This document shows, piece by piece, positions 23,796 through 28,052 of a DNA stretch of 64,000 bases (positions are counted from its first letter, which is position 1; each line of letters opens with the position of its first letter). Below the pieces are notes generated by a model. It searched no databases. It was not told where the DNA came from and saw nothing but the letters and a program-made list of their open reading frames with translations. The translations under genes and the position numbers were made by a program. This DNA comes from Candidatus Binataceae bacterium (GTDB taxonomy: Bacteria; Desulfobacterota; Binatia; Binatales; Binataceae): assembly GCA_035493515.1 (NCBI GenBank), contig DATJID010000035.1:43422-107421 (forward strand), written 5' to 3'.

Positions 23796-24521
23796 CTATA
23801 GCATTTCCACGACCTGCGGGTCGCGCCGGACGAAACTGTAAAGCGCGGCCGGACGATGGGCGCCGCGGCGTGTGGCCGGCAGGCGGCGCAGGATTCCCAT
23901 CGAGAGAATCCGTCGGCGAAAATTGCGCCGATCGATCGGGCGCTTCAGGATCATTGCGTACAGCGCCTCCAGTTCGGCGAAAGTAAAGGTCGCAGGCAGC
24001 AGGTTGCACGCGATGTTGGTGTACTCGAGCTTCGCCTTGAGCCTTGCCAGCGCATACTCCGCCATCTGCTGATGATCATATGCAAGCGCGGGCAGTGCCG
24101 AAACCTCGAACCAGCGACCATCGAGATACTTGCCGCCCGGCGCCGCCGCGCTGCGCGCATCGGCGATCAGTGCCATGTATGCCACCGAAACCACATGGGC
24201 GCGCGGATCGCGCGACGGATCGCCGAAGGTGAAAAGCTGCTCCAGGTAGGCTTCGCGGATGCCGGTTGAGGCGAATAGCTCGCGATGCGCAGCCTCGTCC
24301 AGCATCTCACCCATCCGCACCAGGCCGCCCGCGAAAGCCCATCGCTCACGCACCGCGCCGCGCCGCAGCTGCACCAGGTAGGTCTTGAGCCCCCCGCTTT
24401 CGACCGCGAACACCACCGTGTCGACCGCGACCTTGGGCCGCGCGACGCGCCGGCTGCGCGCGGCGCCCAGGCCGGCCGGCGGGCGAACGCTTCTCGATGG
24501 CGGTGGCGACTCGGAGTTCAC
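23796..24521 (-). CDS. Nudix hydrolase fused to C-terminal winged-helix domain (NrtR-like regulator)
   Basis: Nudix box region (RERWAFAGGLVRMGEMLDEAAHRELFASTGI), then a C-terminal wHTH-like segment (FTFAELEALYAMILKRPIDRRNFRRRILSMGIL). Confidence 0.6.
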   Translation of the reverse strand: MNSESPPPSRSVRPPAGLGAARSRRVARPKVAVDTVVFAVESGGLKTYLVQLRRGAVRERWAFAGGLVRMGEMLDEAAHRELFASTGIREAYLEQLFTFGDPSRDPRAHVVSVAYMALIADARSAAAPGGKYLDGRWFEVSALPALAYDHQQMAEYALARLKAKLEYTNIACNLLPATFTFAELEALYAMILKRPIDRRNFRRRILSMGILRRLPATRRGAHRPAALYSFVRRDPQVVEML

Positions 24522-24560
24522 CGGCGCAAGTATATCCGCCGGATTGCGCCTCGTTCAAAG

Positions 24561-26702
24561 TCAGCGCGTGCAGTTGATATACGTCCAGCAGGCGTCGAAC
24601 TCCATGCGGGGGCCGAACAAGGTATCGATTGCCTGCCGGATCAGCGAGAGCCGGTCGGCAATCGCCTCCGCAGTTGGCGCCCGCCCATCGACTTTCTCAT
24701 TGCCACCGACCCATCCGAGAACCGCGTCGTGGTAGGCGCTCAGGAATTCGTACCAGTCGTCGACCCGCGCCCGGATATTGTGCTCGGTCACGCTCTCAAT
24801 CTGAAAACCGGCGCTCCTTAGAGTGTTGAGGTAAAAATCGAGCCGCCGCGGTTCAACGAATACGCGATTGCGAAACGCGCTGTGAGCCTCCATCCGTTCG
24901 CCGTCGTCGAGAACGGATCTATATGCCACATAGCGTGGGTCGCTGCGGACGATTCCCTCGGCAAGATCATTTATGACCCATACCGTTTCATCGAGAATCC
25001 ATTGATTCGGCTTCGCTCGCGGATTGCGGATATTTCCGGAGTTGATAAACAGTTCGCCGCCCGGGCGCAGAACCGAAGCCCAGGCCGCGGCGGTCTCCTC
25101 GAAGTCAGTATAGAGATGGACCGCATTGGTGCACGCAATCTTGTCGATTCCGCGCTGCAGCAGCGCCGGACTCAGCACCTCGCCGATTCGTTGCAGCCGT
25201 TTCTCATCTTTCAGAAAACGCAGCAGGCGAAACGCTACGCGAGGATCGGTGGCGAACTTCTCGACTGCGACCCGCAAAAACCGCGGCGAGCTGTCGACGA
25301 TGAGGATGCCGGCGCCGCGGTCGAAAATCCTCAACTTCAGACGATCCAGGAGAATTCCGGTGCCACCCGAATAATCCACCATGATGTCGTTTTCTTTCAG
25401 ATTGGTGGCCAGGTCATCGACGATCGGATCGAGGTTTCCATACCAGCCGTGGCGCTCCACCTTGTCGTAGGCGAGGCCAAAACGTTCCACGGGCTGATGG
25501 GTCCAATCTTCGTCAGGTATCCGATCAAAACCGCCCGGCCATGCGAACGAGGCGTGCTGGTCGGCGGACGAAACCACCGGCTGCGCCACGCCGGCATGCA
25601 GCCTGAGCAGATCAGGGACGATCCGTTCGGGTTGGCGGCCCCATCCGCACACGGTGGCCGCGCCGAACCGGTCAACGTAGGAGCGCGCCATCCGGATTCG
25701 CTTGAAAGCTCCTTCTAGTCCATCCGATGGATCGATTACTCCAAGGTAAAGCTCGGTCTCCGGACGCAGCGTGAGGCCGGCCAGCGGCGAGAAGTACGAT
25801 TGTTCAGCATTGACCGGCACCGGCATGTGCAGCCAGTTGAGCGGGCGGTCCAGGCTGCCTGCCAGTGCGTTGGCGATTTCAACCAGCTTGCGCGCGTCCT
25901 TCGCCGGGGTGTGGCGATGGCGCCCGTCGCCGTAACACAGGTGATAGCCCAGTTCGACCGCGGCCGGGATTCGGCGGCTCAGCCGCAACAGCCGCTCCAT
26001 GATGCCCGCGCGCACGTCGCCGAACCATGCCGGCACCGAGCCCTCGAGCATCCCGAACTCGACATTGGTGTCCCACTGAATCGCCAGTTGATCGGCGGGA
26101 ACCGCGCGTATGATGAGCGCGACCTCCTCGAGCATTCGCGCTTCATAGATCGGTTCGACGGCGCCCTGCGCGTCGCTCGCGACGAAGGCGCTGATCGGCG
26201 CGAGCGGCGTCGGCAGCGAGACCTGGAACCGGCAATGCCCGGGTATTATACCGTCGCGCTTGAGCGTCGCGAACAGGCGGTAAGACGCGATCGCCGTCTG
26301 CGCGTAGCCGAGCCGCTCGAAGGCGATATCCGCCGCCGAGACCCCTTCGCCAAGCCGCAGCCGCGGCAGCGCCCGATAATGGTCAGGTCCCGGAGGGCAG
26401 ATCTCGAATTCCGGCCGCGAACTGAGGACCGGATACTGCCAGATGATCCAGTCGGCGCGCGGACCCGTCTCGCCATCCGGGATGCGTCGAAGGCGGTCGC
26501 CGAGTTCGGCGGTCACCCGCCGAAACACCTGTTCCGCATCCGCCAGCGGGATGCTGCCGACCAGGTGAACCCCGGAAGCCAGAGGTCCGTCGCGTAACGC
26601 CTCGGAAGATTCGGAAGATTCGGAAGATTCGGAAGATTCGGAAGAGGTTTTAGGAGATGACTCAGAGAATGATTCGGATGAAGATTCAACCGACTTCGGC
26701 AT
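24561..26702 (-). CDS. fusion protein: MetE-like (cobalamin-independent methionine synthase/UroD-like) Zn-methyltransferase domain + class I SAM-dependent methyltransferase domain; Ser/Glu repeat N-terminus
   Basis: N-terminal half has an HxC zinc-ligand motif (LGYHLCYGDGRH) in a MetE-like context. C-terminal half has SAM-MTase motif I (MVDYSGGTGILLDRL) and post-I (GILIVDSS...RPGGELFIN). Residues 8-35 are an SES/ESS repeat. Confidence 0.7.
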   Translation of the reverse strand: MPKSVESSSESFSESSPKTSSESSESSESSESSEALRDGPLASGVHLVGSIPLADAEQVFRRVTAELGDRLRRIPDGETGPRADWIIWQYPVLSSRPEFEICPPGPDHYRALPRLRLGEGVSAADIAFERLGYAQTAIASYRLFATLKRDGIIPGHCRFQVSLPTPLAPISAFVASDAQGAVEPIYEARMLEEVALIIRAVPADQLAIQWDTNVEFGMLEGSVPAWFGDVRAGIMERLLRLSRRIPAAVELGYHLCYGDGRHRHTPAKDARKLVEIANALAGSLDRPLNWLHMPVPVNAEQSYFSPLAGLTLRPETELYLGVIDPSDGLEGAFKRIRMARSYVDRFGAATVCGWGRQPERIVPDLLRLHAGVAQPVVSSADQHASFAWPGGFDRIPDEDWTHQPVERFGLAYDKVERHGWYGNLDPIVDDLATNLKENDIMVDYSGGTGILLDRLKLRIFDRGAGILIVDSSPRFLRVAVEKFATDPRVAFRLLRFLKDEKRLQRIGEVLSPALLQRGIDKIACTNAVHLYTDFEETAAAWASVLRPGGELFINSGNIRNPRAKPNQWILDETVWVINDLAEGIVRSDPRYVAYRSVLDDGERMEAHSAFRNRVFVEPRRLDFYLNTLRSAGFQIESVTEHNIRARVDDWYEFLSAYHDAVLGWVGGNEKVDGRAPTAEAIADRLSLIRQAIDTLFGPRMEFDACWTYINCTR
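26603..26647 (-). repeat. in-frame 9-bp simple-sequence repeat (cggaagatt ×4-5) encoding (SES)n at the N-terminus of the MetE-like/MTase fusion
   Basis: Plus strand reads cggaagattcggaagattcggaagattcggaagattcggaagagg; on the minus strand this encodes SSESSESSESSE. Confidence 0.8.
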
Positions 26703-27026
26703 CTGTCCTCTCCTTCGGTCTGCTAATCGCTCCTCACAACAACTTTGACTACAGGTGGATTCCTCGCACTTGCGGCCAGCGCCAATCGATCTTCCCCTAA
26801 ACTTAAGTATATGCGCGAAGCGGGTCTTCGCTCAAAAGAAAGAAAGGAGCGCAACGGTTCCTAGGACCGCCGAGTGTAGGCTGCAGCGGGCCACCAACCG
26901 CCGCGACGAGACGCTCGCGGCTGCTCGCCGACATCGACAACTGCTTCGCCTAAGGCTTCGACGCCACCGACCTCAAAGATGCACGGGGGCTGCTCGAACA
27001 GCTCAGCCAATAGCCTGCGCTCCTAC

Positions 27027-28052
27027 CTACGCGCCCAACTCGAGCATCCGCTCCAGCGCGCGGCGCGCGCCCTCGCGCACATCTTCGGGAAGTTCTATCT
27101 CGAAGCGCAGATTACGCAAGGAGTCGAGCGTGCCGCCGAGCGTGATCATCTTCATATAGCGGCAGAGCTTGCACGCCTTATAGAAGTGCTTGTTGGGAAT
27201 TTCCATCAGCAGCCGGTCCGACAGTCCGCACTCGGTCACCACCAGGAACTTGTCGGCGTCGCTGGTTTCGGCATAGCGCACCATCGCGCTGGTCGAGAGC
27301 ACCGCGTCGGCCAGACGCAACACGTCGGTCCGGCATTCGGGATGGGCCAGGACCTTGATTCCGGGAATCGAGCGTTTGACCTTCTCGACCTCCTCGGCGG
27401 TTATCTGATGATGCACGTAGCAGTTGCCGTCCCATGAGATGATCTTCTTGCTGCTCTGGCTCTGCACGTAGTTGGCGAGGTTCTGGTCGGGGACGAACAG
27501 CACGTGCTCGGAGTCAATCGCCTCGACCACTTTAAGCGCGTTGGCGGAAGTGCAGCAGGCGTCCGACTCGGCCTTAACGTCGGCCGTGCAGTTGACGTAG
27601 GAGACGACCTTGAGGTCGGGATATATCTCGCGCAACTCGGCCTTGCGTTCGGCCAGCGCTTCTGCCGTGACGCTCTCCGCCAGCGAGCATCCGGCCCGCA
27701 GGTCCGGCAGCAGCACCATCCGCTCGGGATTGAAAACCTTGGCGGTCTCGGCCATGAAATGGACGCCGCAAAATACGATAATTCCGGCCTCGCGCACCTC
27801 GCGCGCCTTGTATGCAAGTTCCAGCGAGTCGCCGATGAAGTCGGCAACCTCGAATATTTCGGGACGCTGGTAGTTGTGCGCGAGCACCACGGCGCCGCGC
27901 TCGGCCTTGAGCCGGTTGATTTCGTCGATCTGGGCGGCGTAGCGCTCGCAAGCCGCGAGATCGTAGCCGTCCTGTCCCAGGGCGGCGAGCTTGCGATGTA
28001 GCCGCGCGGCGGCAACGGAGCTGGTGGTCGAGGGCTGAACTTCAAGCGTCAT
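27027..28052 (-). CDS. nadA: quinolinate synthase
   Basis: VLAHNYQRPEI, VFCGVHFMAETAKV, C-x-x-C-x-x-x... NadA motifs; 341 aa. Confidence 0.85.
   Translation of the reverse strand: MTLEVQPSTTSSVAAARLHRKLAALGQDGYDLAACERYAAQIDEINRLKAERGAVVLAHNYQRPEIFEVADFIGDSLELAYKAREVREAGIIVFCGVHFMAETAKVFNPERMVLLPDLRAGCSLAESVTAEALAERKAELREIYPDLKVVSYVNCTADVKAESDACCTSANALKVVEAIDSEHVLFVPDQNLANYVQSQSSKKIISWDGNCYVHHQITAEEVEKVKRSIPGIKVLAHPECRTDVLRLADAVLSTSAMVRYAETSDADKFLVVTECGLSDRLLMEIPNKHFYKACKLCRYMKMITLGGTLDSLRNLRFEIELPEDVREGARRALERMLELGA

Follow-up and report, generated by a model that had tools for sequence, protein, structure and literature searches.

A widespread fusion of a divergent MetE-like barrel with a class I SAM methyltransferase and its possible place in the activated methyl cycle

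Why would a bacterium build two methyl-transfer modules into a single polypeptide? The question is raised by a gene in a 64,000-nt stretch of a Candidatus Binataceae bacterium genome (assembly GCA_035493515.1, contig DATJID010000035.1, positions 43,422 to 107,421; the window, by which we mean the whole stretch). Here the open reading frame (ORF) at 24561 to 26702 on the minus strand joins a MetE-like barrel to a class I S-adenosylmethionine (SAM)-dependent methyltransferase. The reading we favour, with a probability of about 0.5, is that of a bifunctional methyl-cycle enzyme, in which a zinc-homocysteine barrel and a SAM methyltransferase act on the same pool of homocysteine, methionine and SAM, preferably in a chemically coupled manner. 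According to the ORF listing the gene encodes 713 amino acids and a stop codon, and its product begins with MPKSVESSSESFSESSPKTSSESSESSESSESSE. The ORF, its coordinates and the three motifs singled out in an earlier reading of the sequence (the original prediction) were all present as described: GYHLCYGDGRH at residues 252-262, DYSGGTGIL at 443-451 and RPGGELFIN at 546-554. The gene and its two domains are placed as follows.

24561 to 26702, minus strand: complete coding sequence, MetE-like barrel plus class I SAM methyltransferase (ORF listing, full-length homologues, intact frame in related loci)
25548 to 26585, minus strand: single MetE-type (βα)8 barrel, residues 40-385, no Pfam model
24564 to 25490, minus strand: class I (Rossmann) SAM methyltransferase with C-terminal cap domain, residues 405-713

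Among 5.8 billion proteins searched, no fewer than 892 clusters matched the full protein at E≤0.001, and the 120 best matches listed were all full-length (∼650-715 residues, 60-98% identity). Both halves lay in one intact reading frame in all 88 related loci. Given these clusters and the intact frame, the ORF is not a chance one, and a gene-call artefact or chimeric assembly was rejected on the strength of the same 88 loci; frame disruption in independent assemblies, named beforehand as an outcome that would speak against the fusion, was not what these loci displayed. Scanning one genome per species located relatives in 196 species, and the 80 retrieved were without exception metagenome-assembled genomes (MAGs). 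The host genomes are soil MAGs, mainly of Binatia (labelled 'delta proteobacterium'), Rokubacteria/Methylomirabilota, Dormibacterota, Acidimicrobiia, Solirubrobacterales/Thermoleophilia and Chloroflexota, with further single bins from Terriglobales, Verrucomicrobiia and Nitrosocosmicus. The closest relatives (96-98% identity) came from Binataceae MAGs. Of the 120 matches listed, the closest was annotated as 'hypothetical protein'; elsewhere the source annotation was no more than 'class I SAM-dependent methyltransferase' or 'UbiE'. What had been taken for an unusual one-off is therefore a family strongly conserved over many phyla.

Conservation was equal across the two halves (N-half 58-67%, C-half 57-68%), and the fusion alignment revealed a highly conserved, Trp-rich interdomain linker. 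A structure model of the full-length protein reached a predicted template modelling score (pTM) of 0.81. Because of the equal conservation and this model, both halves look functional and rigidly joined. The family is real, widespread and conserved across many phyla, and appears to be uncharacterized; literature searches found no description of an architecture combining a MetE-like barrel with a SAM methyltransferase. A published parallel is the eukaryotic 'MetE-fusion' of Phaeocystis and other protists (PMC10861871), which likewise places a single MetE-type barrel in a larger multidomain protein overlooked by automated annotation. It differs in its partners (polyketide synthase (PKS)/acyl carrier protein and a CzcO-type flavoprotein), in its eukaryotic, marine hosts and in having a MetE domain that standard models recognize. 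As a side observation, a 68.8-kb contig assigned to a thaumarchaeal bin (L042, DASRWT010000012.1, 'Candidatus Nitrosocosmicus sp.') carries a homologue of the fusion with 59% identity, which points to either an inter-domain transfer or a binning error.

What kind of barrel forms the N-terminal half? The AlphaFold2 (AF2) model of this domain (predicted local distance difference test score (pLDDT) 89, pTM 0.90) displayed the MetE-type (βα)8 barrel, and we likened it to MesD (PDB 3RPD) in fold and active-site layout; unrelated TIM barrels scored no more than 13 in the comparison with the N-half. The structure search thus brought out the MetE relation, and not the unrelated fold without a zinc triad that would have overturned the original prediction. 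Its UroD-like alternative fared less well, with no PF01208 match and a structural similarity lower than that to MetE. The MT2 branch of the UroD family (MtaA/MtbA, methylcobamide:coenzyme M methyltransferases) accounted neither for a family-model match nor for the best structural match. The N-domain differs from MT2 in possessing the MetE-type amino-acid-binding residues and in having no corrinoid proteins nearby, and the hosts are mainly soil lineages with no nearby sign of methanogenic methyltransferase systems.

Sequence comparison was far less telling. HMM scans had been proposed as a check, and they delivered for one half of the protein: the C-half gave weak methyltransferase matches, whereas the N-half matched neither PF01717 nor PF01208 even at E≤1. 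Scanning the N-half together with ten relatives against Pfam and NCBIfam matched nothing in the barrel region, and eight standalone homologues of the N-domain and a tandem form yielded no PF01717 or methionine-synthase match. Searches of PDB sequences, both with the single sequence and with a profile, drew a blank for the N-half, returning weak methyltransferase matches and a marginal 1YPX at E 0.036. When we compared a profile of the N-domain family (123 sequences) with one of the PF01717 family (27 members, built from genes neighbouring the fusion), HHalign reported a probability of 97.8% (E 7.5e-13) in local mode and 99.0% (E 3.4e-17) in global mode. Significance was reached only with family profiles; with one neighbour sequence as its target, HHalign fell short of it. 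The relation of the N-domain to MetE is visible only by structure and profile-profile comparison. We accordingly place the barrel on a new, divergent branch within the MetE superfamily and do not count it among the members of PF01717, because the curated models fail and a glutamate ligand is replaced by histidine.

An exhaustive HMMER search with residues 40-385 showed the N-domain to be an independent domain, matched at E≤0.001 by 3081 clusters (50% identity level). Of the 150 matches listed, the majority were standalone proteins of ∼340-355 residues with 38-52% identity, and the standalone clusters that we looked up were named at most 'hypothetical protein', one of them from the cultured Nocardia gipuzkoensis. 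Other architectures were rare among the database proteins, namely a tandem form, a glutathione S-transferase (GST) form and an ornithine-cyclodeaminase/mu-crystallin form (P0121, P0142 and P0205); the tandem form has 712 residues and two such barrels, and bears the JGI name 'methionine synthase II'. The fusion protein itself has one barrel only, the remainder being the Rossmann methyltransferase, so there is no second, N-terminal barrel of the folate-polyglutamate-binding type.

Is the active site of MetE retained? The functional positions of MetE are Ser433, Glu484, Asp599, His641, Cys643, Glu665 and Cys726 (PMC7857596). We mapped them by chaining the HHalign alignment with an alignment of a PF01717 protein to 3RPD, using the residue roles given by Price et al. 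(PMC7857596), and measured conservation in two sets, one of 74 fusion proteins and one of 101 standalone homologues to which the window protein was added. The corresponding residues are these.

26553 to 26555, minus strand: Ser50, aligned with MetE Ser433 (homocysteine carboxylate contact; global HHalign plus 3RPD alignment)
26469 to 26471, minus strand: Glu78 in PDGETG, aligned with MetE Glu484 (homocysteine amino-group contact)
26070 to 26072, minus strand: Asp211 in IQWD, aligned with MetE Asp599 (homocysteine amino-group contact)
25935 to 25943, minus strand: His254-Leu-Cys256, aligned with MetE zinc ligands His641 and Cys643
25827 to 25829, minus strand: His292, at the position of MetE zinc ligand Glu665 (Glu to His; HHalign sets LHMPVP opposite VLEFAN)
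25647 to 25649, minus strand: Cys352 in ATxCGWGR, aligned with MetE zinc ligand Cys726

Glu78, Asp211, His254, Cys256, His292 and Cys352 were invariant in the 74 fusions and Ser50 was at least 90% conserved there, while all seven positions were at least 90% conserved in the standalone set. The model places each of the seven residues where a strand ends on its C-terminal side, and their order along the successive strands matches that of MetE. The MetE-like zinc motif of the original prediction probably holds, in that the His-x-Cys pair and a distal cysteine align with MetE zinc positions. Histidine is chemically able to bind zinc, and we predict from the alignment that the site is kept as His2Cys2 rather than HisCys2Glu. 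Since the Ser/Glu/Asp contacts of MetE with its amino acid are retained, the substrate of the barrel would be homocysteine or a very close analogue and not an arbitrary thiol.

Core MetE proteins (MesD, MesA/B/C and the PF01717 C-terminal part of MetE) share with the N-domain the order of positions, running from Gly-Ser at β1 through DGE, QxD, HxC and a ligand on the next strand to CG at the last strand, as well as a length of ∼345 residues and the lack of a folate-binding second barrel. Identity is only 13-17%, with no match to PF01717 or to the NCBIfam methionine-synthase models, and the fourth zinc ligand is histidine instead of the Glu/Asp of core MetE (Glu665; Asp in MesB). Unlike core MetE, the N-domain has no MesX (DUF1852) or corrinoid-protein partner nearby and is fused to a SAM methyltransferase.

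The same residues bear on the idea that the barrel is not a catalyst at all but a homocysteine- or methionine-sensing, or substrate-presenting, module that regulates or scaffolds the methyltransferase as the sole catalyst. Precedent exists in the non-catalytic duplicated barrel of canonical MetE (PMC10861871), and the failure of the N-domain to match curated MetE models would fit. Degenerate barrels lose their metal ligands and substrate contacts, however, and here these are invariant; moreover, the standalone homologues are so abundant (the 3081 clusters above) that they must have a function of their own. We regard a non-catalytic barrel as quite improbable.

The C-terminal half was simpler to place. 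It adopts the Rossmann-like methyltransferase fold, and the following elements could be read from it.

25356 to 25376, minus strand: motif I, D443-Y-S-G-G-T-G449, SAM-binding glycine-rich loop (read from the sequence)
25293 to 25295, minus strand: Asp470, acidic residue ending β2 (end of the predicted strand 465-470)

Asp443, Gly446, Gly447, Thr448, Gly449 and Asp470 were invariant in 74 sequences. The acidic residue at the end of β2 contacts the ribose of SAM in class I methyltransferases, a role predicted for Asp470. Pfam returned weak class I methyltransferase matches over residues 443-555, the best being Methyltransf_12 with 28.4 bits against a cut-off of 30, and many homologues carry precomputed PF08242/PF08241 matches. 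With this fold, the invariant motif I and Asp470, the assignment of the C-half to the class I SAM methyltransferases was borne out, and it is an ordinary-looking, capped small-molecule enzyme of that class. The closest structural matches were the natural-product methyltransferases OxaG, RoqN, TleD, TmtA/GtmA and RebM, and the neighbours also included phosphoethanolamine, sarcosine/dimethylglycine and glycine-sarcosine N-methyltransferases. Among the matches listed there was no MmtN (the methionine S-methyltransferase of bacteria), and an MmtN-like nature of the C-domain was not supported.

Compared with the capped UbiE/COQ5-like enzymes (OxaG, TmtA/GtmA, 4VPMT2, Coq5, PMT, SDMT), the C-domain shows only 11-22% identity, falls below the Pfam gathering thresholds, and has an invariant segment of its own, SGNIRNPRAxPNxWILDETVW, which is distinctive of the domain, together with the Trp-rich linker. 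It differs from them further in that it has been seen solely as a partner of the barrel: no standalone C-domain gene turned up when we inspected the flanks of 56 loci with just a standalone N-domain.

To ask which pathway the fusion might serve, we called and clustered ORFs in genome-derived loci, scored 84 of them and annotated the recurrent clusters. A gene for a core-MetE-like protein (384 residues) occurred within 5 kb of the fusion in 26 loci and was adjacent in 15; the corresponding figures for thiolase were 19 and 16. Inside the same distance, 14 loci had metK and 5 had ahcY, the latter figure rising to 7 when the ∼10-kb flanks were counted. In Solirubrobacterales, Actinomycetes and Dormibacterota one typical order was ahcY-metK-fusion-thiolase. 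The other order in these lineages consists of two divergent arms, the left one being (GCV_T-like)-(core MetE)-(thiolase) and the fusion arm fusion-(S-methyl_trans plus class I methyltransferase fusion)-(GAF-LuxR)-(PfkB kinase)-metK-(3-hydroxyacyl-CoA dehydrogenase)-(acyl-CoA dehydrogenase); two such loci also contained a divergent homocysteine-methyltransferase/MTHFR fusion. In Acidimicrobiia a Peripla_BP_6-type ABC transporter diverges from the fusion and a 384-residue core MetE, followed by an Rph-like phosphoenolpyruvate (PEP)-utilizer protein. Because metK, ahcY and other homocysteine methyltransferases recur nearby, the context points to the activated methyl cycle and not to a natural-product cluster. 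A search for riboswitches (SAM/SAH and others) in seven methyl-cycle loci and the window found none.

The S-methyl_trans plus methyltransferase gene was within 5 kb in 10 of the 84 loci and always adjacent. It encodes a second, non-homologous fusion (L050:5446-7290; also L057, L060, L069, L074, L081 and L084-L087), in which a PF02574 homocysteine S-methyltransferase barrel (residues 46-332) is followed by a PrmA/MTS-like class I methyltransferase (residues ∼400-485) in a total of ∼595-614 residues; its methyltransferase half is not MmtN-like by sequence. This protein is a convergent counterpart, the same pairing having arisen independently.

Two further arrangements were seen at these loci. 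The N-domain, fused or standalone, recurs in a trio with a divergent 384-residue PF01717 core-MetE-like protein and a ∼550-residue Rph-like PEP-utilizer with a swivelling His domain (L038, L040, L045, L053, L064, L066, L070, L079, L080, L088; L094:1983-6026), often joined by a metallo-β-lactamase-fold gene and the divergent Peripla_BP_6 ABC transporter; one standalone locus repeats the trio. In actinobacterial clusters a 228-residue protein with a GCV_T folate-binding domain stands beside the core-MetE-like gene (L087:6744-7430; equivalents in L052, L074, L082, L085 and L086), and might supply a single-barrel MetE with folate binding from a separate protein.

The original prediction had suggested a small-molecule biosynthetic or detoxification role. 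Spelled out, this would have the barrel alkylate a thiol or selenol other than homocysteine and leave an additional methylation to the methyltransferase. Natural-product enzymes as the closest structural matches of the C-domain, the GST and ornithine-cyclodeaminase/mu-crystallin fusions of N-domain homologues, and the thiolase, acyl-CoA dehydrogenase, AMP-ligase and luciferase-like monooxygenase genes near some loci could all be accommodated by such a role. However, none of the 84 contexts contained PKS, nonribosomal peptide synthetase (NRPS) or other natural-product core genes, the neighbours being metK, ahcY and homocysteine methyltransferases instead. Retention of the MetE Ser/Glu/Asp amino-acid-binding triad speaks for a homocysteine-like substrate, and ∼60% identity over distant phyla fits central metabolism better than a specialized pathway. 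A tailoring or detoxification enzyme is therefore an unlikely description.

How might a methyl-cycle enzyme of this design work? The barrel would hold zinc through His254, Cys256, His292 and Cys352 and bind L-homocysteine, or a very similar α-amino-acid thiol, through Ser50, Glu78 and Asp211; zinc would convert the thiol to a thiolate, which accepts a methyl group. The C-domain (residues ∼405-713) would bind SAM, methylate a small molecule and release S-adenosylhomocysteine (SAH). Coupling could take two forms. In the first, the SAM domain provides an activated methyl group, as SAM or as an S-methylmethionine-type onium made from SAM, and the barrel hands it to homocysteine; in the second, the SAM domain S-methylates methionine freshly made by the barrel. 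Together with MetK, AhcY and adenosine kinase either form might produce a relay or valve resembling the S-methylmethionine cycle.

A bacterial and archaeal S-methylmethionine cycle has been proposed from linked MmtN and homocysteine methyltransferase (HMT) genes (PMC9135737). The fusion resembles the PF02574 homocysteine S-methyltransferases (MmuM/HMT/BHMT/Bmt) in the predicted zinc-thiolate activation of homocysteine and in the putative use of free onium donors such as S-methylmethionine, SAM, betaine or dimethylsulfoniopropionate (DMSP), which also characterize the cycle of methionine methyltransferase (MMT/MmtN) and HMT. A genomic linkage of SAM methyltransferase and homocysteine methyltransferase is common to both, with the PF02574 plus methyltransferase fusion adjacent in 10 genomes. 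It differs in that its barrel is of the MetE lineage and not PF02574, and its C-domain has no specific similarity to MmtN, so the pair that defines the S-methylmethionine cycle, a PF02574 HMT with an MmtN-like methyltransferase, is not what the gene encodes. We favour chemical coupling because the C-domain has been seen only in fused form, the linker is conserved and the model rigid, the same pairing arose independently next door, and a prokaryotic S-methylmethionine cycle has been proposed.

The principal rival to this bifunctional methyl-cycle enzyme keeps both catalysts but separates their chemistry. The C-domain would carry out high-flux methylation of an unrelated metabolite such as an N-methylated osmolyte or a lipid head group, the barrel would regenerate methionine from a non-SAM donor, and the two would be fused for stoichiometry. 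Operons with metK, ahcY and a PfkB kinase do resemble clusters that serve heavy SAM use, the N-methyltransferases named above count among the structural neighbours of the C-domain, and the common standalone N-domains evidently work without a methyltransferase. On the other hand, a standalone C-domain gene was found near no N-domain homologue, the predicted rigid two-domain structure (pTM 0.81) and conserved linker suggest a composite enzyme, and the adjoining non-homologous fusion of a zinc-homocysteine barrel with a methyltransferase argues for direct coupling. Independent functions are possible, and clearly less probable than the shared-pool enzyme.

The reading as a bifunctional methyl-cycle enzyme builds on four observations: the folds of both halves, catalytic and binding residues that are conserved, a fusion that is itself conserved, and a genomic association with methyl-cycle genes; binding of zinc and homocysteine, the identity of donor and acceptor and the coupling of the two sites are what we infer. 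Several findings weigh against it. The N-half matched no NCBIfam methionine-synthase model even at E≤1, and the fourth zinc-ligand position is occupied by an invariant histidine, His292, and not by glutamate. Net transfer from SAM to homocysteine is energetically futile, which means that a regulatory rationale is needed. Many loci, including the window, are without methyl-cycle neighbours, and the standalone N-domain homologues have no conserved partner gene: no neighbour was common to more than 5 of 74 metagenome loci (30 of which were fusions), and individual standalone contexts such as that of Nocardia were uninformative.

A bolder proposal is that the fusion and the standalone barrels together form a new class of homocysteine methyltransferase that depends on neither folate nor cobalamin, and that in the fused proteins the SAM domain makes or presents a methyl carrier for the zinc barrel. 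We hold this to be doubtful. If true, soil phyla that are dominant yet uncultured (Binatia, Rokubacteria, Dormibacterota, Acidimicrobiia and Thermoleophilia) would possess a self-contained methyl relay of the S-methylmethionine type, or else a new route of methionine/SAM homeostasis.

Methionine synthesis and SAM recycling belong to central metabolism, and for single-barrel core MetE enzymes most of the methyl donors have yet to be established. Against this background a MetE-like barrel family of ∼3,000 clusters at 50% identity has been invisible to Pfam and NCBIfam, and one conserved branch of it, recorded from no fewer than 196 uncultured soil species, has a SAM methyltransferase as its fusion partner and recurs in metK/ahcY operons. 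Were the halves chemically coupled, the fusion would represent a new means of transferring methyl groups among SAM, methionine and homocysteine. A gene that thousands of metagenomic records list simply as 'class I SAM-dependent methyltransferase' or 'UbiE' would then also gain an annotation. Even with independent halves it would provide a compact entry point to the core-MetE methyl-donor question in aerobes.

How is the gene expressed, and what surrounds it in the window? The remaining features on either side are the following.

26710 to 26715, minus strand: Shine-Dalgarno sequence AAGGAG, 8 nt before the ATG (read from the sequence)
26806 to 26835, minus strand: σ70-like promoter match TTGAGC-18-TATACT, ∼105 nt 5′ of the start codon (consensus scan only; region conserved in L001)
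24529 to 24558, minus strand: second σ70-like match, in the 39-nt gap region before nrtR (consensus match only)
27027 to 28052, minus strand: nadA, upstream neighbour (Pfam NadA, 386.9 bits)
23796 to 24521, minus strand: nrtR (Nudix plus NrtR winged helix, Pfam), downstream, 39 nt past the stop codon
23329 to 24009, minus strand: PCYCGC-motif protein (PF13798, domain match), after nrtR and followed by a VTT/DedA-family membrane protein

Both promoter matches fit TTGA[G/A]C-18-TATACT; since each gene has its own match upstream, the fusion gene and nrtR may be transcribed separately despite their tight spacing. PF13798 is an unknown cysteine-rich domain, possibly metal-binding. The nadA and NrtR-like Nudix neighbours named in the original prediction are thus present in the window. 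Conservation of context, which it had suggested checking, extended to the fusion but not to this neighbourhood: the order nadA-fusion-nrtR-PCYCGC-VTT-two-component system was restricted to about ten Binataceae loci, and nrtR adjoined the fusion in 9 closely related ones, the window included. Across Binataceae loci the order nrtR-PCYCGC-VTT-histidine kinase-σ54 regulator is kept.

The interval between nadA and the fusion gene was searched for an NrtR operator or inverted repeat, and it contained no inverted repeats. Two Binataceae relatives with 86-87% identity carry a perfect palindrome, ATTGCGCAAT (inside AATTGCGCAATAGT), just 5′ of the fusion gene (L014:9960-9973, L015:9973-9986). The window is without it and it is not general; where present, it could be a candidate regulator site.

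There remains the unusual N terminus, which comprises two overlapping features.

26589 to 26702, minus strand: codons 1-38, Ser/Glu-rich low-complexity N-terminal tail (pLDDT 29-41 over residues 1-38)
26602 to 26645: perfect 9-bp tandem repeat TCGGAAGAT × 4.9 (unit written for the plus strand), encoding (SES)n (Tandem Repeats Finder score 88, 100% matches)

The tail is predicted to be disordered. Between the annotated ATG and the conserved GVHLVGS strand at the beginning of the core, the window offers no in-frame ATG, GTG or TTG alternative, and both L001 and L002 have the identical ATG and Shine-Dalgarno sequence; for these reasons the tail is in all probability really translated in the window strain. 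The perfect 9-bp repeat had been recognized from the start, its unit being a rotation of the cggaagatt then quoted, and had been taken for a contingency-type locus. Copy number indeed varies between close strains: among relatives with at least 96% amino-acid identity the tail measures 43 residues in the window, 30 in L009 and 46 in L002, all in frame.

Would such variation switch the gene on and off by phase variation? Four relatives with at least 96% identity do carry repeats of different lengths, and in L001 a +2-nt difference inside the repeat (L001:9932-10001; ENA contig_51857) breaks the frame from the conserved upstream ATG. Yet the tail units are of 9 bp (SSE) or 12 bp (SSSE), so that slippage preserves the frame, as it does in three of the four variants, and relatives at 87-90% identity have a tail of 13-16 residues with no repeat at all. 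The frame-broken copy, moreover, lies on a long-read metagenome contig and retains a downstream TTG start, from which the gene callers derived a 678-residue product, and a long-read contig from another sample of the same ENA series (ERZ25039548; L007/L014) has its Nudix/NrtR, VTT and σ54-regulator genes split by indels, which suggests indel errors. An on/off contingency switch is thus largely refuted and highly improbable. Because 9- and 12-bp units keep the reading frame and the tail is predicted to be disordered and is not conserved, the repeat is best read from its sequence as a slippage-prone in-frame microsatellite. Family-wide, tails range from 3 to 28 residues (median 11), are not conserved, and lack the repeat in most members; the Ser/Glu tail would be dispensable, its length drifting by replication slippage.

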